The notes under the pieces were generated by a model. It saw only the letters and a list, made by a program, of their open reading frames with translations. It was not told the origin of the DNA and ran no database searches. Shown here piece after piece: positions 1,721 through 15,820 of a stretch of DNA of 20,000 nucleotides; position 1 is the stretch's first letter; every line of letters starts with the position of its first letter. The stretch lies in IMG/VR virus record IMGVR_UViG_3300027628_000015. One strand, 5' to 3'. A program made the translations under genes and the position numbers. The stretch is from an uncultured virus (IMG/VR IMGVR_UViG_3300027628_000015). Its lineage: Duplodnaviria; Heunggongvirae; Uroviricota; Caudoviricetes; Herelleviridae.

Positions 1721-3430
1721 ATGGCAACATCTTACGGTTTCGATCGTCAACGCCCAAGAACAGAAATTTTCTTGGATGCTAGTTCTTTAGGAGCTGCAAA
1801 CACTCGTTCAGAAAAGCCTCTAGTGCTTATCGGTTCAGCTAATGGTGGAGAGCCAAACGTACCACACGTTATCTCTAACTTTGCTCAAGCTCGAGAATTA
1901 TTCCGTAGTGGAGAGCTATTAGACGCAATCGAGATGGCATGGAACCCTTCTCCAAACATTTCAGGAGCAGGTAAAATCATTGCTATTCGTTCTGATCAAG
2001 CTACACAAGCAAAATTAACTCAAGGTGCTTTAACATTCACTTCTAAGCTTTACGGTGTGGACGCTAACTCTATTCAGGTAGAAATGGCAGACAATACGCT
2101 TACAGGCTCTAAACGTGTCTCTGTGTACTTCACAAAAGAGCGTTATGAAAAAGTGTATGATAACATCGGTAATATCTTCACTGTACGTTACACAGGTACA
2201 AGCGCTGTGGCTACAGTAGAGGTACAAGTAGATTCTTCTTCTAAATTAGCTACTAAGTTAATTCTTAAAGCTGGTGCAGACGCAGGAAGCGCTACTGCTG
2301 TTCGTACGTACGAGCTAGGAGTAGGTGTTTATGAAGACGTTCACGTACTAGTAAACGATATCAATAACCTGCCAGATTTCGAAGCTAAGATGATTGTGCT
2401 AGGTGGTAACAAAAACATCGATACACAATATCTTGATGCTCTACCAGCAGGCGATATCAAAGGTAAAGACGTAACTGTAAAAGCTATCGGTGCAGATTTA
2501 CAAGCGCAATTAGCTAATGATAGCTATGTAGAGGTTAGTGTAGATCGTACTCAAGCAGTACCAGCTACAGTTACACTTTCTAGCTTATCAGGTGCAAAAA
2601 CAGAACCAGCTCCTGCTTCATGGGCTAGCCTATACGAAGCAATCAATGGTTTAGATGCTTACTACATTACGCCTCTAACATCTGATGCAGCTATCCACGG
2701 AGAGCTTTCTCAGTATTTAAGAGACGAGTCTAATGCTGGTATGCATCAACGAGGAATTGTTGGTGGAGGATTAGGAGAGTCTGAAGACGAACTTCGTTCT
2801 CGTCAAATGAACCTTCGTAATTCCCGTGTAGGAGTAGTAGGTGACTCAGGTACACGCCGTATGGCAGATGGACGAGTTTATAACTTCCCTGCTTACATGT
2901 ACGCTGCGTTAGTTGCAGGTATCGCTAGTGGACTAGAAATCGGAGAGCCATTGACTTACAAAAAAGTCAACATCGAAGGTCTAGACCGCAAGTTTACTGG
3001 AGATCAGCTTGACCAATTAAACAACTCAGGAATCATCATGACGGAGTTTGTACGTACTCGTACGTCATCTCACTTCCGTATTGTATCTGACCCAACTACT
3101 TACAATGTATCCACTGAGCCAGTACAAAACCGTATCTCTTTAGGAGAGGTTTCTGACTTCTTAACTACAGAGCTTCGTGAAGTACTGGATAACGAGTTTA
3201 TTGGTACACGTATCCGTAGCACTTCAGCTTCTATCATCAAAAACCGTGTTGAGTCTTTCCTAGATCAACAAAAGAAAGTTAACGGTCTAATTGTTGATTA
3301 TAGCCCGGATGACGTACAAGTTGTTATCTCTGGTAACACAGCTCGTATCAACTTGACAGTTCAACCTTCTCAAGGTCTAGATTTCATCAACGTGTTTATC
3401 ACATACGAGGATAATGAACTAACAGCTTAA
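1721..3430 (+). CDS. Major tail sheath protein
   Basis: 569 aa. Motifs RPRTEI..DAS.LG, LIGSANGGEP, FRSGELLDAIEMAW, and C-terminal ISLGEVSDFL..ELR..LD.EFIG.R are characteristic of A511/K-type sheath proteins. RBS GAGGA. Confidence 0.95.
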   Translation: MATSYGFDRQRPRTEIFLDASSLGAANTRSEKPLVLIGSANGGEPNVPHVISNFAQARELFRSGELLDAIEMAWNPSPNISGAGKIIAIRSDQATQAKLTQGALTFTSKLYGVDANSIQVEMADNTLTGSKRVSVYFTKERYEKVYDNIGNIFTVRYTGTSAVATVEVQVDSSSKLATKLILKAGADAGSATAVRTYELGVGVYEDVHVLVNDINNLPDFEAKMIVLGGNKNIDTQYLDALPAGDIKGKDVTVKAIGADLQAQLANDSYVEVSVDRTQAVPATVTLSSLSGAKTEPAPASWASLYEAINGLDAYYITPLTSDAAIHGELSQYLRDESNAGMHQRGIVGGGLGESEDELRSRQMNLRNSRVGVVGDSGTRRMADGRVYNFPAYMYAALVAGIASGLEIGEPLTYKKVNIEGLDRKFTGDQLDQLNNSGIIMTEFVRTRTSSHFRIVSDPTTYNVSTEPVQNRISLGEVSDFLTTELREVLDNEFIGTRIRSTSASIIKNRVESFLDQQKKVNGLIVDYSPDDVQVVISGNTARINLTVQPSQGLDFINVFITYEDNELTA

Positions 3431-3444
3431 TAGATTTAACACAA

Positions 3445-3467
3445 AGTAGGAGGTAAAATCTCCTACT
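3445..3467 (+). other. Intergenic hairpin without U-tract between sheath and tube
   Basis: AGTAGGAG(G)-TAAAA-(T)CTCCTACT inverted repeat. Confidence 0.55.
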
Positions 3468-3496
3468 AATTTACTAAAGAATTGGAGTGAAATTGG

Positions 3497-3922
3497 ATGG
3501 CATCTGTAACTAACCAGACAGTACAATCCGCTAATACGGTTTACTTTATGATCAAGAATGTGCCGATTGCTCGAGCTCAATCAATTTCTGCGGAACGTAG
3601 TTTCGGTACTACAGGGGTATACCAAATCGGTTCTATCATGCCTCAAGAGCACGTTTACTTGAGATATGAGGGTTCTGTAACAGTAGAACGTTTCCGTATG
3701 AAGAAAGAAAACTTAGCTTCTCTAGGCTTTGCGGCTTTAGGAGAAGAAGTTCTAAAAATGGATATTATGGACATCGTATTATATGACAACTACACTCAGG
3801 AAGTCGTGGTAGCCTACCGAGGCTGTAGTATTGATACGTATAGTGAAAGTACAAGTGTTGGAGAAATCTCATCTGAGAGTGCTCGTTTCTACTTCCTAAC
3901 TTCTGCTAACGTACGAGGATAA
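3497..3922 (+). CDS. Tail tube protein
   Basis: 141 aa directly after the sheath. MAS..NQTVQSANTVY.MIK, SAERSFGTTGVYQIGSIMPQEHVYLRYEG is the conserved Herelleviridae tube signature. RBS GGAGTG. Confidence 0.93.
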   Translation: MASVTNQTVQSANTVYFMIKNVPIARAQSISAERSFGTTGVYQIGSIMPQEHVYLRYEGSVTVERFRMKKENLASLGFAALGEEVLKMDIMDIVLYDNYTQEVVVAYRGCSIDTYSESTSVGEISSESARFYFLTSANVRG

Positions 3923-3958: not shown

Positions 3959-3968
3959 TGCTATATTA
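3959..3968 (+). promoter_or_regulatory. Putative phage late promoter TGCTATATTA
   Basis: Identical decamer upstream of the genes at 4003, 7430 and 12608. It resembles the TGTTATATTA-type late promoters of Herelleviridae. Confidence 0.7.
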
Positions 3969-7429: not shown

Positions 7430-7858
7430 ATGTCTGAAAATTATGAAAACCAGATCGAGGACTTAATGCCTAAACAAGACCTTACCCCTGAAGAACGTGA
7501 AGCAAACTTAAGCTTACAGAAGAAGAAAGCAGTAGATCGTATCGTCCGAGGAGTAAATGATACGTTTATTAAAGATTATACATTTGAAGATTTAGACTTA
7601 AAATTCACTATTAAAATTAAAGCGCCTAACGCATTAGATATCGGTAAAATTCAAGCCCGTGCAGCTGCTTACTTAGGTGGAATGAATACATACCTAGATA
7701 ACTACACAAACACAGTGTATCAAACTCTAGCAACAATTCGTACCACAGGAATTGAAGTACCAAAAGTATTAGCAAATGACGAGGACATATATAATCTAGA
7801 TATTCTATTTCAGATTGGGGTCGATTTCAAGCAGTGGCTTGACAACTTTCGACTTTGA
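7430..7858 (+). CDS. Tail assembly chaperone (G-like)
   Basis: 142 aa, two genes upstream of the TMP. Motifs RGVNDTF.K.Y.FE.LDL.F..KIK.PNA, AYLGGM, Y..LAT....GIEVP, C-terminal FRL. Confidence 0.85.
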   Translation: MSENYENQIEDLMPKQDLTPEEREANLSLQKKKAVDRIVRGVNDTFIKDYTFEDLDLKFTIKIKAPNALDIGKIQARAAAYLGGMNTYLDNYTNTVYQTLATIRTTGIEVPKVLANDEDIYNLDILFQIGVDFKQWLDNFRL

Positions 7859-8498
7859 GATAGAGAAGCTTGGTGGATTAAAAGCGCTATCTCGGACTCC
7901 ATATATGCGGAACTTGTGGGCACTAATGAAGACTTTCAATACAATGCCTACAAACCCGGATTTTCTTGCTTTAACAGATAGGCAAGTAGATTTAATGATC
8001 TATTCATTAAATGAAGATCACAGAGAAATGGAGCTTGCTCGTAAAGGACTTACTGTTGATTCTGAACACTACGATTCTAACTTTGAAGAAGAAGTATGGA
8101 ACAGACAAGTCGGTGATTGGGAAATTCTTAAAGATGGACATGACCCTGATGATATTGCTAGACAGGTGGAAGAGCTTACTCGAGCTGAAGATCGTAAGAA
8201 CCTCGCAATGAAATTTGACAGCCTAGAAGAGTATAACGATTACTTAGCCGCAGGTGGAAAAACAGTTCGTGAGACTGAAGTAGAGCAATATATTAACAAA
8301 CAAATCCAAGCAGCAGAAGAAATGGCTCGAAGACTTTCAGCAACAGGAGAAAAGAAAAAACTTGTGGACGATCAAGATAGACCTGAGACAGATTCAGCTC
8401 TTAGTGATCATTTACCTGACATTGATAAAGCAGCGATTGACAAATCGATTGCCCTATTTAATGCTCAAGATGATGATGACGATTTTAGTGCTTTGTAA
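7815..8498 (+). CDS. Tail assembly chaperone extension (T-like), probably expressed as a +1 frameshift fusion with 7430..7858
   Basis: Overlaps the previous ORF in the +1 frame. No convincing RBS at TTG 7815 or ATG 7905. RNLWA.MK.FN..PT motif. Candidate shift sequence TTT CGA CTT TGA at 7847-7858. Confidence 0.75.
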   Translation: MGSISSSGLTTFDFEIEKLGGLKALSRTPYMRNLWALMKTFNTMPTNPDFLALTDRQVDLMIYSLNEDHREMELARKGLTVDSEHYDSNFEEEVWNRQVGDWEILKDGHDPDDIARQVEELTRAEDRKNLAMKFDSLEEYNDYLAAGGKTVRETEVEQYINKQIQAAEEMARRLSATGEKKKLVDDQDRPETDSALSDHLPDIDKAAIDKSIALFNAQDDDDDFSAL

Positions 8499-8559: not shown

Positions 8560-11500
8560 ATGGCTAAAGAACAATTTATTTTTGATGTCGATGCGGAAAC
8601 CAGTAAGGCGGTCTCTAAGCTAGAGAAAATTGAAAGGCTAATGAATAAACTAAATAGTGTACATATTAAAGGTGTAGACAATTATTCTACAACCAATCAA
8701 AAAGATATGGACAAAAATATGCGTTCCATGAGACAGCTTACTAAACTCTATAGTGAGATGGACCGTGACCTTACAAATCTTCAAGCTAAGATGAGAAAAA
8801 TGTCCGATGGGCTTGAAGTACCTACAGGTGCTACACAAGAGCAACGTGAGGAAATCGAAAAGCTAAAGCAGGCTATCGTTGATCAAACAGAAACAGCAAT
8901 TAAACAACAGAAGAAGTTGAGTAGGGAATATGATCATTCATTAGCAGCTTACCGTGAGTTCGCTACATTTCAACAAAACTATTCTAAAAATTTTAAGAGC
9001 GCAATTAATTCTAAAGATATTTTTAACCTCCCTTCAGGTGCTGAGTCATTCGGTGAAGCTAGAAAAACTATGCAATCTTTAGCTAATGAAGCTGAGCATG
9101 CTGCTAGTAAAATCAGTCAAGTGACTGATAAAATCCAAGAGGTAAATAAATTAGATAGACGTGCAGACAGCCTTTCTCGAAGAGGGGCTGCATCTAAGTA
9201 TATGTCCTACCAACAGGCACAAAGTTTCTCTAAAGATTACCGTACCTCTTCTCAGGATTACGTAGCTCAACGTGAAGAGAATATGAACAATATGACTCGT
9301 ATAGGTCAAGAGCGTAGAACTCTTCATGAGCAAGTTACAGCGATTCAACAGAATCCAGAGGCTACTAATCAAGACATAGATAAAAAGATCGCTTACCAGC
9401 AGTCAATTGAATCTATGGATAAAGAGATGGATGCTCGATTAGAGTTAAACCGTGTTCTTAATCGTACAATCAAAAATATGGAAGGTTACAACGATCGCTT
9501 AACTAATGGTAACGTAGAAGTTAAGCCTGAACGTGGTACTCTATCTGGTATGATGTATGAACGTGCTCCGGCTATCGGTTTTGCTGCTAGTGGTGCATTC
9601 GCTGGAGTATTCGGTAGTCTATACGGTCAAGGTGCTTCACTTAATAAAGGTATCCGTGACGATGTAGTTTCTATTGGACAGCGTACAGGTATGGAAGGAG
9701 AGCAATGGAGAGAAGGTATCCGTGACAATGCACTAGAGTCTGGTCTTTCTGATAAGCTAGGTTATGGTGGGGCGGACATGCTTGCCTTCCAACAAAACTA
9801 TCTTTCTAATAACGGTTTCGAAGGTATGGACGATCTTAACGCTGCTATGAAAAACCAAGCTGTATTTAGCCGTACTACAGGGGTAGACGATGCCGCTACT
9901 AAAGAGTTCTTCAACTCTGTCTATAGTACAGGTGCAGTAAGCGGTACACAGTCTAAAGATATTCAAGATGCTTTTATTGGAGCTATTAAACAGAGTGGTA
10001 TGGAAGGTCGAGAGAAAGATCAGTTAAAAGCTTTACAAGGTTTAGTAGAGGGAGTGTCCCGTGGACGTACTCTAACAAACGATGAAGCAATGAATGTAAT
10101 GGGCATGCAGTCTGTACTAGCTCAGACAGGAGTTCGTTCTTTACAAGGAGAGCAAGGCGGACAGCTTTTAGCTAATCTAAACGAAGGTATCCGAGGCAGT
10201 TTCAATAACCCTCAAGCCCGTTTAATGTTCGGTCAAGGTACTAAGTATCAAGGTATCGAAGGTAGATGGGAACTTCGTAAACGTTTAGATAAAGGTATTA
10301 GTGACCCAGATAATGTTAATGATATAGCTCGTTCAGCAGTCGCTAACGGAAGTACAGAGAATGAACAAAACGAGATATTTGCTTCAGCAGTTCAAGAGGT
10401 TTTACAGACTGATATTACAGCTGAGCAATCAGAAGGTATCATGGATGCTTTCCGTAAAGGGGACCTGACTCAAGAGCAGCTTAATAATATTATCAAACAA
10501 GATAAAGAGACAGGTAAAAAAGAAGGAGATAAAAAATTAGCTAATTACCAAAACTCTCATGAGGCTATCGACAATCAATCTGAGTCTACAACTGAAAAGC
10601 AAGCTACTCAGCTATATGACTTTGGAGAAGCACTACGTAAGACGAACTCAGCTTTAGGTGGATTGAATCCTGCGCTCTATGCTTCAATTATAGCAGTAGG
10701 CGCATTCACAGCCGCTCTAGCCGCTTCTACGCTCTCTCTGGGAGGTTCTAGTTTACTTAGAGGGTTAGCAGGCAAGAAGTTCGGTGGACGTGGAGGCGGA
10801 GGTCCTAAAGGCGGAGGAGGCGGTCCCAAAGGTGGAGGCGGTGGCGGTGTACCACCAATCGTAGACGCTAGAGGTAACCCAATCCAATCTGAAAAGAAAG
10901 GCTGGTTCGGACGTACTAAAGATACTGTAGGTGGCTGGTTCGGTCGAAACGGTACTGACACTCCTAATGTACCTAAAGGTCCAAAACCTGAAGGAACGCC
11001 AAAAAGCGGATTCTTTAGCAGTGTTAAGGAGAAGGCTGGAGGTTTCTTAGGAGCCGCTAAAGATAAAACAGGTGGGTTCTTCAATTCAGCTAAAGAGAAA
11101 GTCGGAGGCTGGTTTAGTAAAGGTAAAGGCGGAGGAACATCTGGAGCTGTAGAAGGGGCAGCTAGTGGAGGTCTTAAAGGTTTCCTAGGTAAAGGTGGAA
11201 AAATCCTCGGTAAAGCTGCATTACCACTATCCTTAGCTATCGGTGCAGGAGAAATCCTAAGTGCCGAGAAAGGTAAGAAAGCAGAAGCAATCGGCTCTGT
11301 CGGAGGCGGTATCCTCGGAGGTATGGGAGGAGGAGCAGCTGCTGGTGCTGCATTAGGTTCTGTAGTTCCGGGACTAGGTACAGTTATCGGTGGTATCGGA
11401 GGCTCTATTGTCGGAGGTATAGCAGGAAGTAGTTTAGGAGGCTGGATTGGTAGCAAGTTCAATGGTGGAGAAAAGAAATTAGAGACTCCTGAAGAAGTTG

Positions 11501-12423
11501 CAGCAGCTAAAGAAACTATGAGCAAAGCCTTTACTATCGGAGAAGACAAGAAAGAGGAGAAAGGCTCTATCAAAGGTCAACTAGAGCGTGAAAATACGAA
11601 TACGAAAGATCGTGCTGAGAATAAGCGTTTATCTAACATCGGACAAGAAAGAGAAAACTTAAAGCTTTACGAAACTCTACTTAACCGTGCAGAACAAATC
11701 CTCGCTCAAGCTCGATCACAGAACGGTATTTTCGGTAATGGAAACGGTATGAGCGGTGGAGACGGAAGCGGAGGTACTGGTGCGGCAAGTCCTGTCACAG
11801 GTAACAGCAACTCAGAGAAGGCTTGGAACTTCTTCGCTAGTAAAGGGATGTCAGAAGGAGCTATTGCTGGTATCATGGGTAACCTACAGCAAGAGTCTCA
11901 GATAGACCCTACTGCTCCAAACGGAGGACTTGCTCAGTGGTTAGGACCTCGTAGAAAGGACCTTAACAACTACGCTAAGCAAACTGGCGGAGATGTTAAC
12001 TCGATGGAAACTCAGCTTAACTTCCTATGGAAAGAGTTAGAGTCTGGGCAGTATGGTAGCGTCGATGAGCTAAACAAGTTGAACCCTACAGAGGCTGCTA
12101 AGTACTTCGAGAAGCATTATGAAAAAGCTGGAAAACCTATGATGGAGAAACGTATTGGGTACGCTAATGATTGGTACAGTCAATACGGTAACGGTAAGAG
12201 CCCACAAGCTAAAACCAACTCCGGGACATCCAGCGTTAACTCTTCATCTAATACGAACAGTAGTGTTAAGGTTAATTCCAACATTAATGTTAACGTTAAG
12301 GGTGACGAGAAGACATCTGAGAAGCTTAAGAGCAATAAAGAGCTACAGAGTATTGCCGATTCAGTACAGCAAAAGATTTACGGTGCTATGGGATTCCATG
12401 CAATCGAAACGAAGAGAGCGTAA
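8560..12423 (+). CDS. Tape measure protein with C-terminal phage lysozyme 2-like muralytic domain
   Basis: 1287 aa, helical, follows the chaperones. Gly-rich hydrophobic segments. Around 11810-12190: AWNFF..KG.S..AIAGIMGNLQQES......GLAQW...R...QLNFLWKEL...AAKYF...YE. Confidence 0.9.
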   Translation: MAKEQFIFDVDAETSKAVSKLEKIERLMNKLNSVHIKGVDNYSTTNQKDMDKNMRSMRQLTKLYSEMDRDLTNLQAKMRKMSDGLEVPTGATQEQREEIEKLKQAIVDQTETAIKQQKKLSREYDHSLAAYREFATFQQNYSKNFKSAINSKDIFNLPSGAESFGEARKTMQSLANEAEHAASKISQVTDKIQEVNKLDRRADSLSRRGAASKYMSYQQAQSFSKDYRTSSQDYVAQREENMNNMTRIGQERRTLHEQVTAIQQNPEATNQDIDKKIAYQQSIESMDKEMDARLELNRVLNRTIKNMEGYNDRLTNGNVEVKPERGTLSGMMYERAPAIGFAASGAFAGVFGSLYGQGASLNKGIRDDVVSIGQRTGMEGEQWREGIRDNALESGLSDKLGYGGADMLAFQQNYLSNNGFEGMDDLNAAMKNQAVFSRTTGVDDAATKEFFNSVYSTGAVSGTQSKDIQDAFIGAIKQSGMEGREKDQLKALQGLVEGVSRGRTLTNDEAMNVMGMQSVLAQTGVRSLQGEQGGQLLANLNEGIRGSFNNPQARLMFGQGTKYQGIEGRWELRKRLDKGISDPDNVNDIARSAVANGSTENEQNEIFASAVQEVLQTDITAEQSEGIMDAFRKGDLTQEQLNNIIKQDKETGKKEGDKKLANYQNSHEAIDNQSESTTEKQATQLYDFGEALRKTNSALGGLNPALYASIIAVGAFTAALAASTLSLGGSSLLRGLAGKKFGGRGGGGPKGGGGGPKGGGGGGVPPIVDARGNPIQSEKKGWFGRTKDTVGGWFGRNGTDTPNVPKGPKPEGTPKSGFFSSVKEKAGGFLGAAKDKTGGFFNSAKEKVGGWFSKGKGGGTSGAVEGAASGGLKGFLGKGGKILGKAALPLSLAIGAGEILSAEKGKKAEAIGSVGGGILGGMGGGAAAGAALGSVVPGLGTVIGGIGGSIVGGIAGSSLGGWIGSKFNGGEKKLETPEEVAAAKETMSKAFTIGEDKKEEKGSIKGQLERENTNTKDRAENKRLSNIGQERENLKLYETLLNRAEQILAQARSQNGIFGNGNGMSGGDGSGGTGAASPVTGNSNSEKAWNFFASKGMSEGAIAGIMGNLQQESQIDPTAPNGGLAQWLGPRRKDLNNYAKQTGGDVNSMETQLNFLWKELESGQYGSVDELNKLNPTEAAKYFEKHYEKAGKPMMEKRIGYANDWYSQYGNGKSPQAKTNSGTSSVNSSSNTNSSVKVNSNINVNVKGDEKTSEKLKSNKELQSIADSVQQKIYGAMGFHAIETKRA
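10792..11120 (+). repeat. Coding repeats within the TMP: GGGG(G)PK units and about 11-aa K(D/E)KxGG(F/W)(F/L) units
   Basis: GGGGPKGGGGGPKGGGGGG at 10792-10848. SVKEKAGGFL/AAKDKTGGFF/SAKEKVGGWF at about 11018-11115. Confidence 0.7.
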
Positions 12424-12441
12424 CAGCTCTCTTTTTCTTTT
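12412..12441 (+). terminator. Rho-independent terminator overlapping the TMP stop
   Basis: AAGAGAGC-GTAACA-GCTCTCTT-TTTCTTTT. Confidence 0.75.
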
Positions 12442-12464
12442 ATTCAAAAAATTTAGAATGTTCG

Positions 12465-12474
12465 TGCTATAATA
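12465..12474 (+). promoter_or_regulatory. Putative promoter TGCTATAATA
   Basis: Identical to 7357-7366, just after a terminator. Confidence 0.55.
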
Positions 12475-12527
12475 GTATATGAAGGGGTTGACATATATGC
12501 GTAAATATGATAGAGGAGGAAAATAAA

Positions 12528-12572
12528 TTGACAACGATTATTAAGCTAAAAGGACACTCAGTTTTTAGGTAG
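12528..12572 (+). pseudogene. Orphaned original 5' end of the hub/tail-lysin gene (MTTIIK, then read-through to a stop in the insert)
   Basis: RBS AGGAGG at 12514-12519, then TTG ACA ACG ATT ATT AAG C. Compare ATG ACA ACA GTA ATT AAG C at 13519. Confidence 0.7.
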
Positions 12573-12577
12573 ACTTC

Positions 12578-12587
12578 TGCTATATTA
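12578..12587 (+). promoter_or_regulatory. Putative late promoter TGCTATATTA inside the endonuclease cassette
   Basis: Exact copy of the motif at 3959 and 7387, directly upstream of RBS AAGGAG (12594-12599). Confidence 0.7.
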
Positions 12588-12607
12588 ATAGTAAAGGAGT
12601 GGATACT

Positions 12608-13522
12608 ATGGAAAAATATTTACCTTTATTATCGTTTAAGACGAAAGCTGAACGTGCAGCATACGTAAAAGAACAAATGTTATTAGGAGGTTTAAAACTT
12701 CTAGAAGAATACAAAGGAAATAACACCCCCGTAGAGGTGGAAATCCTCGAAGGAATGTACACAGGTTACAAAGCTACCGCTACTTGGAACAATTTTATTA
12801 AGGGAAAAAGACCCGATTTTAGGGGGCTCCCTCATACGGAGAAAGAGAGATATTTAAAAAGTATATTCGAGCCAGAAGGTTACAAAATTATTAATCTCCC
12901 GGAGTACGTAAGACGCAGCGATAAAATTGATCTACTATCTCCAAATGGACATGAATGGTCTGTTACAGTCGATACTTTTTTAAAAGGTGTAAGATGTCCT
13001 CTCGACAGTGATAGAAGCTGGGGAGAGCGTTGTGTATCTACAATTCTAAAAGAGAACGGAGTCCCTTTTAAACCGCAAAAAGCTATTTTCCATAAAGACG
13101 GTTCTCGACAGTTCTTAGACTTTTATGTTGAATATGGAGACCTATTAATAGACATTGAATATAACGGAAGACAGCATTACCAAGAGGAAAGAATAAACAA
13201 GCTATTTAACTCTTTAGAATCTCAACAAAAAAGCGATAAAAAGAAAGCGGACTATTGTAAAGCTAATGGAATTGTTCAGGTCATTATACCTTATACAATT
13301 AGAGAGGTAAAAGACATAGCTACTGAAATAAACAAATACATACCCGTAGAGGTTAAGGACTACACAGTAGAGTCATATAGGTATGATGAAAAAGCAATTG
13401 TAGAATTTTACAAAACTCATACCCTTAAGGAGACCGCAGAGAAATTTAATCTCAGTGGGTCTACCATAAAGAACCTAGCTAGAAAAAATAAAGTTAGAAA
13501 GAATGGAGGAAGCTTAAAATGA
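12608..13522 (+). CDS. Putative homing endonuclease, Vsr/DUF559-like PD-(D/E)xK fold, with N-terminal repeats and C-terminal HTH
   Basis: GHEW.....F.KG.RCP, SWGE..V..IL, LDFY, IEYNG.QHY, D..K..YC..NGI....IPY. C-terminal LKETAEKFNLSGSTIKN HTH. ATG 12608 fits the RBS spacing better than GTG 12599. Confidence 0.8.
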   Translation: MEKYLPLLSFKTKAERAAYVKEQMLLGGLKLLEEYKGNNTPVEVEILEGMYTGYKATATWNNFIKGKRPDFRGLPHTEKERYLKSIFEPEGYKIINLPEYVRRSDKIDLLSPNGHEWSVTVDTFLKGVRCPLDSDRSWGERCVSTILKENGVPFKPQKAIFHKDGSRQFLDFYVEYGDLLIDIEYNGRQHYQEERINKLFNSLESQQKSDKKKADYCKANGIVQVIIPYTIREVKDIATEINKYIPVEVKDYTVESYRYDEKAIVEFYKTHTLKETAEKFNLSGSTIKNLARKNKVRKNGGSLK

Positions 13523-15820
13523 CAACAGTAATTAAGCGCTATCCCTAGTTTCGAAGTAGACCTAGTAACAGAAAAGACAAGCTACGAATTAACATACGAT
13601 ACAGGTAAACAGCTTAAACAATCGGACTTTGAAGAAGCTATTATTTCCTTCAGCTGTAAGAACTCAATGGCAGATGATAGCCCCGTATTCTCCCTTGTAA
13701 TTCTAGCAAAAGAAAAATGGGATGCAATGCTTAATTCAAATGATTTAATCCGTATTCGAGCAATCCCGGATAGTACAAAAGGTGTTCCAGATAATCCGTA
13801 CATTATGGTAGGACTTATCTCAGATATCCATAAAGAAGGGGAATATGAGAACGGAACTTTACTTTACCGTATCACAGGTCGAGCTATGACAAAAGCTTTA
13901 ATTGATTTTGAAGTAGGGGTTATTCAGGAAGTTTCTACAGTTATCCCTTCTATCGGATGGCTACCAGATACGACAGAAAAAGGATTAAAGTTTTCTGGAA
14001 ATACAGCAGCAGGTATTGGTAACGAACTAATGGAACGATTTGTGTACAAGCATGCAGTATATGAATTTTCTAATGGTAGAGGATTAAAAGATTATTTAAC
14101 TCACGGATTTACGAGCTGGCTTGAGGATGAGAGCTTGGCTGACGTTACCCCATTCATCAATTATGAAGGAAGTATTAGACAATTCTTGGAGGACATTACA
14201 GCTAAACCATTTAATGAATTATTTTTTGAATATACGCCAGATGGCAAGTGCGCTGCCGTTATGCGCCCTACGCCGTTCGATCAAGACAAATGGTCGGCTT
14301 TACCCTCTTACGGATTTACTTCTGATCTAGTAGTAGAAGAATCTTTCGGTAAGTCCGATGCAGAAATGTATTCCGTTTATGTTGTACAAGCACCTAACTT
14401 GTTAGAATTTAACAGTATGGATTTAGGAGTTTATCCAAAGTATCATCCAGAATTGTTAAAGAAATACGGTTATAAGAGATTGGATGCTCAAAACAGATAT
14501 TTACTTTCTGGTACGTTAGCAGGGGTAGACCCTAACACAAATGCAGCACCAGACGCAACAGATACTAGCGGTGGAGGAACAGGTACAGACACTGGAAACA
14601 ATAACGGAGGTACTGACCAAAACCAAGATCAACAACAGAATGCTCAGAATGTACGAGTACAAGAGAAGGAACCTGCAACGGACCCAGCTAAACCAACAAC
14701 TGCTCAGGCTCCAGCTTTTGATGATGTAGCAAAGTATGTTACCGATAATAAATTAACAGACCCGGAAACTCTTCGTAAAAAGGGAAACAAAGTAGCTACC
14801 GATTTAATGGCTCAATTCTCTGGACTTACTGAGAATAGTGCTAAGGCGATCGTAGATGCATTAAAAGATGGAAAGTTTGATAGAGAAAAATACGATAACA
14901 TTATTGCAACAACAGGTACAAAAGCTGATAAAGAATTGAGTAAAGAGAAAGGCGTAGCTAGTGAAAAGCTAGAGAAATTTACTCAAAAATTATTTAACTG
15001 GTATTGTGAGAATGCTAACTTCTATAGTGGGGATATTCGAGTACTAGGTAACCCAGCCTACCGTATCGGCACAATCGCTCTGTATGAGGACTTTGAACGT
15101 AACACTACATGGGAGTTTTATATTGAGTCCATTCAGCACGAATTTAGCTTTACAAACGGCTATACTACTATATTAGGAGTAACAAGAGGTTTACCTAATA
15201 AAGGTGCTAAACGTTTCTCAAATCTATGGGGTAAAGCTGAAGACTTTAAAGGTGGGTACCTAGGAGAAAGCTCTCTAGAAGACCTTTTAGCTCAAGCTCA
15301 AGAGGCAAATGCTACACAAGGTAACTCTGGGGGAACTACAGCAGATGGAAGCTGGGGCAATATGCAAGGTTCTGGTGGAGCAATGGGAGCACTTGCTACA
15401 GCTAGACAAATGACCCAACGATCTTCTACCTATATTTTCGGCGGAGGACGTTCGGGAACAAATATCTTCCTAAGCAATCCAATTAAAGGTGACTGTTCTT
15501 CGTTCGTATGGTGGTGCTATCAGTTAAACGGTGTTACCTTAAAAGGTGGTTCCACAGGAATGAATACAGACACAATCAAAATAGACCCACAGTTAAAAGT
15601 TATTAGCCAAAGAGGTAGTTCAAAAACAGCAGCCCAAAGTATGATGCAGGTCGGAGATATTGTTTACTTCGATACGTATAAGCAAGACGGACATATCGGA
15701 ATTTATTCAGGTAACGGAAAGTTCATTGGATTCCAGAAAAGTACAGGTATTGCAGAAGCTAGTATGTCTAGCGGATACTTCTGGAACAAGTTTAATGGAC
15801 ATGTACTAAGACTTCAGTAA
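13519..15820 (+). CDS. Baseplate hub / tail-associated lysin with C-terminal NlpC/P60 domain; true start 13519 needs a +1 shift at 13543-13548 (track ORF starts at 13667)
   Basis: RBS GGAGGA at 13505, ATG at 13519, MTTVIKRYP-stop. The +1 frame continues PSFEVDLVTE...CKNSMADDSPVF. C-terminus has DCSSFV, GDIVYF, GHIGIY.G.GKFI (NlpC/P60 Cys-His). Confidence 0.85.

Follow-up and report, generated by a model that had tools for sequence, protein, structure and literature searches.

The DNA analysed here (the window) is a stretch of 20,000 nucleotides (nt) from an uncultured virus (IMG/VR record IMGVR_UViG_3300027628_000015), and the region considered is a tail module from a Bacillus myophage of the Bastillevirinae, a subfamily of Herelleviridae. 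At the 5' end of the hub gene of this module, a predicted homing endonuclease gene stands between two copies of the hub start. The hub product carries the annotation "tail protein with lysin activity," and one GenBank record names it a baseplate hub. The locus has the following features.

12514..12572, plus strand: resident hub ribosome binding site (RBS) AGGAGG (12514-12519) and the dead old start, TTG 12528, with 14 codons up to TAG 12570-12572 (from the sequence)
12547..13553, plus strand: inserted cassette of 1007 bp, replacing 15 bases of the closest empty allele (junction relative to the allele of sequencing run X3)
12578..12586, plus strand: the cassette's own promoter motif, TGCTATATT (motif scan)
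12593..12599, plus strand: endonuclease RBS AAAGGAG, 8 nt 5' of ATG 12608 (from the sequence)
12608..13522, plus strand: endonuclease gene, ATG 12608 to TGA 13520-13522, 304 amino acids (open reading frame [ORF])
13505..13509, plus strand: replacement hub RBS GGAGG within the last endonuclease codons (...GGSLK-stop) (from the sequence)
13519..13548, plus strand: replacement hub start, ATG 13519-13521, overlapping the endonuclease stop (ATGA) and encoding MTTVIKRYP before a TAG (from the sequence)
13547..15820, plus strand, +1 frame: hub/tail-lysin body, 757 codons plus stop, with a C-terminal NlpC/P60 domain (PHROG 1015, E 3.9e-302; Pfam NLPC_P60, E 5.4e-15)

An earlier note on this DNA had described two hub-start copies flanking the endonuclease, the upstream one (MTTIIK) running from TTG 12528 to an in-frame TAG at 12570, together with an insert that has its own promoter, a replacement RBS in the last endonuclease codons and an ATGA overlap at 13519-13522; all of these are present as described. 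Two points had escaped it: the downstream start is itself halted by TAG 13546-13548, and the upstream remnant does not end at 12546. The upstream flank is identical to an X3 empty allele as far as 12546, and the hub remnant runs past this position, hub codons ~10 to 15 still being recognisable at 12560-12577 in another frame (alignment by eye). A repeat search measured the start duplicate as 23 nt with 83% identity (12524-12546 versus 13515-13537). The observed match of 15/19 was equalled in 9 of 2000 mononucleotide shuffles of 12547-13700, so the repeat by itself is modest, suggestive evidence, and the comparative data carry the case.

When positions 12100-14500 were used as a megablast query, 13 phage records matched, every one a Bacillus phage. 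The top match, B. megaterium phage vB_BmeM-Goe8 (Goe8), had 93.5% identity with a query coverage of 60% only; the two segments that match extend over 1408 bp in Goe8 and 2401 bp in the window, Goe8 being ~993 bp shorter. The Goe8 hub begins ATG ACA ACA ATT ATT AAG CGT TAT CCA ACA TTT CAA..., directly after the same terminator, promoter and RBS. Empty alleles also occur in rhizosphere run X3, where one contig joins 12546 to 13554 via 15 in-frame bases and another joins 12541 to 13563 via 29 in-frame bases, both remaining in frame and reading ...IIKRYPTFQVDLV.... These are two distinct empty hub-start alleles in one rhizosphere sample (depths 9 and 3), both with the TTG-type upstream flank of the window, which indicates that the hub start is polymorphic within one habitat. 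A contig in RNA run X10 is a low-depth relative with an empty allele and carries no expression information. An allele joining the two flanks was the outcome on which the earlier note had staked its proposal, and Goe8 and both X3 contigs provide it.

Presence and absence of the cassette at one fixed site therefore vary among close relatives, Goe8 and the X3 contigs being empty. Scattered pairs of occupied and empty loci are the window versus Goe8, SBSphiJ3 versus SBSphiJ4 and 035JT004, and TimeGriffin and fHSPT3 versus SIOphi. Differences between the window and Goe8 are concentrated in the first ~42 nt of the hub, and this cluster, with a 38-nt patch in which 010DV004 departs from 035JT004, is the pattern of co-converted flanking markers.

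A tblastn search with the endonuclease matched 287 phage records, and loci were inspected in the 10 most similar distinct phages, leaving aside SBSphiJ2, duplicates and the other ~270 records. These phages (CM1, fHSPT3, SBSphiJ3, TimeGriffin, Goe7, JBP901, BCP8-2, BMBsp2, Emiliahah and Troll) have endonucleases with 50-60% protein identity and represent the genera Siophivirus, Nitunavirus, Grisebachstrassevirus, Caeruleovirus, Tsarbombavirus and Bequatrovirus, plus the unclassified CM1. The endonuclease gene lies between the tail-associated lysin and hub genes in 10/10. The earlier note had proposed looking for homologous endonucleases with duplicated target-gene starts, and all 10 are such cases, at the hub locus and with a second hub start, which begins at the endonuclease stop or no more than a few bases away (TTGA in Goe7 and GTGA in TimeGriffin).

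The arrangement 5' of the endonuclease is equally regular. In nine of the 10 phages, the order is resident RBS, hub codons 1 to 9, a 1- to 2-base deficit at about codons 10 to 11, codons ~12 to 15 (F-E-[IM]-[DE]-L), TG[CT]TATATTA and RBS. The promoter-like TG[CT]TATATTA directly follows the decayed hub remnant in 10/11 occupied alleles, the window included and Troll excepted. The left remnant, "TTTCGAAAT...", is common to cassettes of different genera, which implies that it travels with the element. In Troll (extracted locus 2486-3478), the RBS and first eight codons (MVQIQKRY) of the hub form the beginning of the endonuclease ORF itself. The N-terminal ~66 residues of the Troll endonuclease also differ, and a separate 33-codon ORF lies upstream. 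Start codons vary among these loci: the hub frame of fHSPT3, SBSphiJ3 (both extracted loci ~3665-3680) and the endonuclease-less Goe3 (extracted locus ~484-500) lacks ATG, GTG and TTG and has an apparent ATC start 9 nt after GAGG, with an out-of-frame ATG just 5' of it. The hubs of Emiliahah and JBP901 have an apparent ATT start (extracted loci ~3540-3560 and ~3660-3680), and the dead upstream copy of TimeGriffin has the ATC form.

The empty alleles and the recurrence support the earlier note's description of a free-standing cassette, without intron or intein, that occupies the 5' end of the hub gene and brings a diverged RBS and start. On sequence grounds, the cassette and the duplicate hub start supplied by the element are firmly established, and a cassette with a duplicated hub start is conserved in Bastillevirinae and apparently undescribed.

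Two other arrangements were considered for the insert. A group I intron-encoded endonuclease was ruled out, since no intron model matched and the flanks are coding: cmscan found no Rfam match to a group I intron or ribozyme in 12000-14200 (E<=1), and the cassette is flanked by duplicated coding sequence. Only ~60 nt of the insert are non-coding, and the endonuclease ORF has its own RBS and stop. The endonuclease ORF and hub body share a frame in the window, with only TGA 13520 and TAA 13529 between them. An endonuclease-hub readthrough fusion was rejected because both of these stops intervene and the frames differ in CM1; the shared frame in the window is probably a coincidence, since it is not kept in CM1.

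The endonuclease matches PHROG 559 (E 4.7e-46), PHROG 7140 ("intron encoded nuclease") and PHROG 9084 ("homing endonuclease"). Its AlphaFold2 model has a mean predicted local distance difference test (pLDDT) score of 80.3, and the top three chains in an exhaustive VIA-align comparison all align over residues 130-246. They are the catalytic domain of I-Bth0305I (3r3p_B; Z 9.3, root mean square deviation 2.9, 93 residues aligned), the DUF559-like endonuclease 3hrl (Z 9.1) and Escherichia coli Vsr (1cw0_A; Z 9.1). Residues 259-304 match the helix-turn-helix (HTH) domains of resolvases, LysR and sigma region 4 in the same program (Z ~5). As modelled, the protein is a Vsr-like PD-(D/E)xK core (~130-246) with a C-terminal HTH (259-304). 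Residues D171, F172, E184, Y185, G187, Q189 and H190 are invariant across 17 aligned sequences, and the N termini of the homologues share an M-x-x-Y-x-P-L consensus. D171 and E184-Y-x-G-x-Q-H190 look Vsr-type, a likeness of general pattern and not a residue-by-residue mapping to E-D-x-H-D. The PHROG matches, the Vsr/I-Bth0305I fold and the invariant acidic and histidine residues place the protein in a fold used by known homing endonucleases.

Other searches added little. Pfam returned a sub-threshold sigma-70 region 4 HTH only, a sequence search of the PDB gave no match, and Foldseek with the model gave none at E<=0.001 and only weak PD-(D/E)xK rows. A protein-pattern scan of viral contigs found no relative of the endonuclease, and a metagenome scan with the endonuclease alignment found 80 loci, all at <=40% identity, which carry no information on the hub locus.

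The likeness of the HTH to those of sigma region 4 and resolvases would also suit a domesticated Vsr-fold/HTH protein, acting as a regulator or as an interference nuclease against co-infecting phages, with the start duplication dating from one old illegitimate recombination and inherited vertically. The upstream remnant common to the cassettes fits a single origin of this kind, and the homing activity of the ORF is a prediction. However, the element is scattered among close relatives, substitutions cluster at its junctions, and it occupies one site in at least seven genera at 51-60% protein identity. Repeated homing and loss fit the combination of scattered presence, junction substitutions and a single site across genera better than vertical descent does, and domestication is judged improbable.

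The replacement start in the window is out of frame with the hub body. Nine codons (MTTVIKRYP) follow ATG 13519 before TAG 13546-13548, and homology with the Goe8 hub resumes at AGT 13547 in the +1 frame (SFEVDLVTEK...). The first ATG, GTG or TTG in this body frame is at 13667, ~50 codons in. Together, the nine codons of frame 0 and the 757 codons of the +1 frame have 743/766 identities with the Goe8 hub, beginning at residue 1, so that the N terminus is in one frame and the remainder, with no start codon of its own, is in another. Compared with Goe8, Bcp1, 035JT004 and the X3 alleles, the window is longer by one base here. Alignment places the extra base in the codon 9 C-run of the window, CM1, Moonbeam, BSP36 and 010DV004, where the sites are as follows.

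13543..13549 of the window, plus strand: proposed +1 site CCC_TAG_T, with a rare proline codon for the P site and a stop for the A site (from the one-base excess over relatives)
CM1: TAT CCC TAC CTT TGA G; endonuclease present
Moonbeam: CCC TAG T; endonuclease absent
BSP36: CCC TAG C; endonuclease absent, with ~15 terminal endonuclease codons remaining upstream
010DV004/5: CCC CAC TTT TGA A; endonuclease absent

The earlier note had held that the donated start repairs the hub gene. The cassette does supply a diverged RBS and start, but this start is out of frame, and repair would need a +1 shift.

Five of 19 hub starts read as DNA, a chosen and non-random sample, are shifted; the two further X3 alleles are unshifted. 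Among tblastn alignments to the Goe8 N terminus, those that start at residue 9 and not at 1 to 2 numbered 2/19 Bacillus rows in an evenly spread sample, from a search with 213 Bacillus phage records, and two of the best 60 rows. Classing alleles by where a tblastn alignment with the body-frame query starts was rejected, as Goe3 and SBSphiJ4 align from residue 1 yet are unshifted in their DNA. Short blastn queries of CM1 and Moonbeam found no further close copies of the shifted site, and a DNA pattern for this site hit seven viral contigs, all unrelated by blastn and tblastx. From these sequences, the shifted allele is rare but spread across four or five lineages.

A defective allele, that is, a pseudogene or a sequencing or assembly error in a phage that is non-viable or uses another hub copy, would also produce a broken frame, and the window is metagenomic (traced to a plant metagenome by run look-up), a kind of contig that can conceal minor variants. 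Against this, the likely source run covers the site at a depth of 314 with no variant, a second run yielded an identical contig over 13518-13741, and four cultured lineages from different groups (CM1, Moonbeam, BSP36 and 010DV004/5) have the same excess; tblastn finds one hub place per record. The depth, the second run and the cultured phages indicate that the extra base is not an assembly error, and a defect of any kind is very improbable.

Several features of the five shifted alleles suggest that both frames are translated into one protein. The nine 0-frame codons follow a good Shine-Dalgarno (SD) sequence at correct spacing and differ mostly at third positions, the peptide M-T-[TI]-[VI]-[IVS]-K-R-[YF]-P being kept; Tyr/Phe alternation in the hub N terminus is also present in unshifted alleles. 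K-R-[YF]-P belongs to a conserved block that can be aligned by tblastn out to phages of Listeria, Staphylococcus and Enterococcus. In each of these alleles, the +1 frame is open and conserved over codons 10 to 49; four of the five have no ATG, GTG or TTG before about codon 50. The putative shift codon is CCC in every case, the rarest proline codon in the window (9/193, or 4.7%, in 14 ORFs). UAG directly follows CCC in the window, Moonbeam and BSP36, and in CM1 and 010DV004 a shifty stop lies two codons beyond CCC (CUU_UGA_G and UUU_UGA_A, respectively).

The nine-codon ORF could instead be a leader peptide, with no frameshift and with hub initiation at ATC 13541 or at the internal ATG 13667. 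Body-frame ATC codons are found in the window, CM1, Moonbeam and 010DV004, the apparent ATC or ATT starts of fHSPT3, SBSphiJ3, Goe3, Emiliahah and JBP901 indicate that odd starts are tolerated, and annotators of Moonbeam, BSP36 and 010DV004 begin the gene at an internal Met. Nevertheless, BSP36 has neither ATC nor another candidate, its body frame reading AGC GTT TTC CCT after a TAA, and neither ATC 13541 nor ATG 13667 is preceded by an SD sequence. Furthermore, the nine codons preserve the hub peptide with third-position variation, which would be unexpected for a leader ORF, and codons 10 to 49 are conserved without a start codon. Initiation inside the body frame is accordingly considered unlikely, and synthesis of the hub probably requires a +1 ribosomal frameshift, as read from the sequence.

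In the proposed shift, peptidyl-tRNA-Pro on the rare CCC would re-pair on CCU with UAG still unread in the A site; AGU would then be read next, and a full-length hub of 766 amino acids would be restored. Low-level compensatory shifting might be enough, given that each virion needs few copies of the hub protein. Peptide release is slowed when the chain ends in proline, and slippage would thereby be favoured. CCC_TAG_T offers both a shift-prone P-site codon and a stop, and a site of this type is conserved in the window, CM1, Moonbeam, BSP36 and 010DV004/5, genomes that share a haplotype and are not fully independent. A one-base insertion 5' of hub ...ACC TTT GAR... creates a shifty stop automatically, and this may explain why an insertion is tolerated there.

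Related sites have precedent within and beyond the window. The tail-chaperone pair of the window (7430-7858 and 7815-8498) overlaps at CTT_TGA_G (7850-7856), and its longer product needs a +1 shift; a +1 chaperone frameshift is also noted in the announcement of the Moonbeam genome (PMC4299906). The chaperone heptamer CTT_TGA_G also occurs in the shifted hub starts of CM1 and BSP36. In Atkins 2016 (PMC5009743), +1 shifting at CCC_UGA is described for Listeria phage tsh genes, where CCC makes up ~5% of Pro codons, and E. coli CCC_UGA sites are given 1-15% shifting. A phage-encoded frameshift-suppressor tRNA was rejected as a general explanation, as neither tRNA-Pro nor an odd tRNA is present in Moonbeam, BSP36 or 010DV004; the unshifted Goe8 carries a tRNA-Pro(UGG), and no tRNA was found in the window.

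The shifted alleles share a haplotype consisting of the RBS GGAGGnAGCTTA, the start and ...AAG CG[CT] T[AT]T CCC (window, CM1, Moonbeam, BSP36 and 010DV004). The RBS stretch of the window and of CM1 also encodes the endonuclease C terminus (...GGSL-x-stop), and site 13546 lies inside the cassette. The 010DV004 and 035JT004 sequences are ~96% identical, yet ~11 differences fall within the 38 nt from the RBS spacer to codon 10, and this patch in 010DV004 still reads the endonuclease C terminus ...GGSLL-stop. The shifted start thus survives endonuclease loss in BSP36 and 010DV004, with cassette traces, and in Moonbeam, with weak traces only. The sequences of 010DV004 and BSP36 make them look like former cassette carriers from which the endonuclease was lost by deletion between the RBS/start copies. 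The last five to 15 endonuclease codons lie directly 5' of the hub start in the endonuclease-less Goe3 and BSP36 (extracted locus 1495-1542) as cassette-loss footprints; in Goe3 (extracted locus 460-485), the footprint is of another cassette type, with a ...KKARR-stop remnant followed by the apparent ATC start. The earlier note had suggested that hub expression becomes tied to the element, and this fits the endonuclease-less BSP36, Goe3, 010DV004 and perhaps Moonbeam, which keep the start of the cassette and not the old one.

In the proposed homing cycle, the enzyme would cleave empty hub alleles somewhere between about codon 5 and codon 12, and break repair would copy the whole unit, using the RBS and codons 1 to 7 as left homology and codons ~13 onward as right homology. 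The mobile unit consists, in order, of a remnant of mutated hub codons ~8 to 15, an extended -10 promoter and RBS, the endonuclease, and a hub RBS, start and first ~12 codons that overlap the 3' end of the endonuclease gene, and it has replaced 15 bases near hub codons 7 to 12. Both hub-start copies of an occupied genome would escape cutting by being altered in the target interval. Relative to empty alleles, dead upstream copies have the 1- to 2-base deficit at codons 10 to 11, and live copies either are recoded at codons 4 to 8 (e.g., the ...INRRF... types) or have an extra base. The extra base in the C-run would then be a "savior indel" that changes the endonuclease target. I-Bth0305I tolerates most single target substitutions (Taylor et al. 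2011, PMC3239194), and in T4, MobA was blocked by the gene 60 insert but not by polymorphisms in the flanks (Manning and Atkins, bioRxiv 2022.08.31.505936). Together, these cases make an indel a plausible route to immunity, and by analogy the extra base is tentatively viewed as an immunity indel travelling with the cassette.

Several observations weigh against a frameshift or against the role given to the extra base. The 80 nt 3' of the site fold no better than shuffles (z 0.70), giving no sign of a downstream RNA stimulator, and no SD-like sequence was seen just upstream of CCC. Stimulatory elements are not obligatory at +1 sites. The window is metagenomic, so that this particular genome can only be presumed viable. 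In CM1, a body-frame TTG could initiate instead, as the CM1 annotators assumed, and a body-frame ATC stands just upstream in 4/5 shifted alleles. The five shifted alleles represent one haplotype and maybe one or two events, and they are not independent evidence for selection of CCC. Both frameshifting and endonuclease activity are predictions here. In addition, the replacement start is in frame in nine of 11 occupied alleles (Goe7, BCP8-2, BMBsp2, JBP901, Emiliahah, Troll, TimeGriffin, fHSPT3 and SBSphiJ3), which shows that the indel is no general requirement for immunity. With these points considered, the reading as a whole, a homing endonuclease cassette with an out-of-frame start rescued by a +1 shift and a savior indel, is favoured with some reserve.

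Among known systems, T4 mobA/gene 60 is the nearest precedent (Atkins 2016, PMC5009743; bioRxiv 2022.08.31.505936). Both systems have a free-standing endonuclease in an essential phage gene, an element that supplies the start of the downstream gene part, extra nucleotides in the element-derived region that the ribosome must recode, a recoding site with a stop or "hungry" codon, and a recoding feature that is kept in genomes without the endonuclease. Unlike the 50-nt bypass of T4 gene 60 with its matched take-off and landing codons, the hub has one extra base and a putative +1 shift. Furthermore, the hub is not split into two proteins, its first ~12 codons being duplicated and the old copy dead, and MobA has an HNH fold, whereas the window endonuclease has a predicted Vsr fold. 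The T4 gene 60 insert blocks MobA; a protective role for the extra base of the window would be by analogy only. The hub cassette works similarly to the mobA/gene 60 type and is not a member of it.

MobE in nrdA of Aeromonas phage Aeh1 resembles the hub cassette as a free-standing endonuclease inside a coding sequence, without intron or intein and with new translation signals (bioRxiv 2022.08.31.505936). Aeh1 nrdA is a split gene with added N- and C-terminal tails and two reassembling polypeptides, whereas the hub locus has a 14-codon dead end and a whole protein from the downstream start. I-Bth0305I of the "EDxHD" family (Taylor et al. 2011, PMC3239194) gives the closest structural match to the catalytic core, originates from a Bacillus phage and belongs to a family that includes free-standing genes. 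It is encoded by an intron in recA and has N-terminal NUMOD repeats and a C-terminal nuclease; the window protein has a Vsr-like catalytic domain too, but in the centre and with a C-terminal HTH. In Bastillevirinae, terminase genes have been reported to contain group I introns that encode PHROG 559 "VSR" endonucleases (Weglewska et al. 2025, PMC11878797). These share PHROG and subfamily with the hub endonuclease but are intron-embedded in the large terminase gene, unlike the intron-less insertion in the hub gene, and the text of PMC11878797 that was searched has no mention of "tail lysin," "baseplate," "free-standing," "duplicat" or the hub gene. The tsh genes of Listeria phages PSA, A118 and A500 also have a rare CCC followed by a stop in a tail gene of a low-GC Firmicute phage (PMC5009743), but there the shift takes place at UGA, at the gene's 3' end, and yields an additional, longer product, and the hub shift would be obligatory, nine codons in and at UAG.

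Some mobile endonuclease ORFs of mitochondria (e.g., in Allomyces atp6) bring a replacement 3' end for the invaded gene and leave the resident piece as a pseudo-copy. The Allomyces atp6 type mirrors the hub cassette, at the 3' and not the 5' end, in an organelle and with no recoding. No account of this locus or of frameshifting in a hub gene was found in the literature searched, subscription journals and supplements being outside the search, and the same scope gave no report of an obligatory +1 site CCC_UAG nine codons into a Firmicute phage gene.

The neighbouring region of the window has the following features 5' of the hub.

8560..12423, plus strand: tape-measure-like "tail associated lysin," 1287 amino acids, upstream neighbour (Pfam Phage_lysozyme2, E 1.9e-32)
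12411..12444, plus strand: terminator-like hairpin and T-run, 3' of the tail-associated lysin gene (pattern scan)
12465..12473, plus strand: resident hub promoter motif TGCTATAAT, of the extended -10 type (motif enrichment and position)

The tail-associated lysin gene is the upstream neighbour in all related loci examined, and the resident hub promoter motif is conserved in Goe8, Goe7, SBSphiJ3 and others. The pattern TGYTATAWT has six copies in the window, against 1.5 expected, five of them on the plus strand. The plus-strand TGCTATAWT copies at 3959, 7357, 7387, 12465 and 12578 each lie ~33 to 65 nt (within about 70) 5' of an ORF start, and from this enrichment and position TGCTATAWT is likely the promoter type of the tail module. 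A simple sigma-70 pattern scan called neither of the sites at 12465 and 12578, and the 12465 site has no -35 box. The promoter copy of the cassette resembles the resident hub promoter region, including the next bases (...TAGTA..AGG..). Outside Bacillus phage records, the hub starts of "Xanthomonas phage Xoo-sp15" (MN364664.1) and "Phage f2b1" (MN940411.1; host listed as S. aureus) have ~70% DNA identity to those of Bacillus Bastillevirinae, and the host labels of both records look doubtful.

The locus bears on annotation as well as on mobile element biology. The annotated hub is ~50 codons short in Moonbeam, BSP36 and 010DV004, that of CM1 is begun at a TTG in the wrong frame for the conserved N terminus, and CCC_UAG nine codons into a Firmicute phage gene can be regarded as a probable obligatory +1 site. 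It is possible, though far from assured, that a one-base immunity indel destroys the endonuclease target and is tolerated through a +1 shift at CCC_UAG or at the insertion-created CUU_UGA/UUU_UGA, which would make it the second natural recoding signal spread into an essential gene by a nuclease after T4 mobA/gene 60, with a different mechanism. If so, the recoding persists after the nuclease has gone, leaving a footprint in several phage genera. Homing endonucleases could then enter an essential structural gene right at its start, which they would duplicate and recode, without intron, intein or gene split, and such invasions could leave obligatory ribosomal frameshifts behind, for which the T4 gene 60 bypass has so far been the standard example. 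The one-base version in cultivable Bacillus phages would make the link between endonuclease and recoding easy to test.

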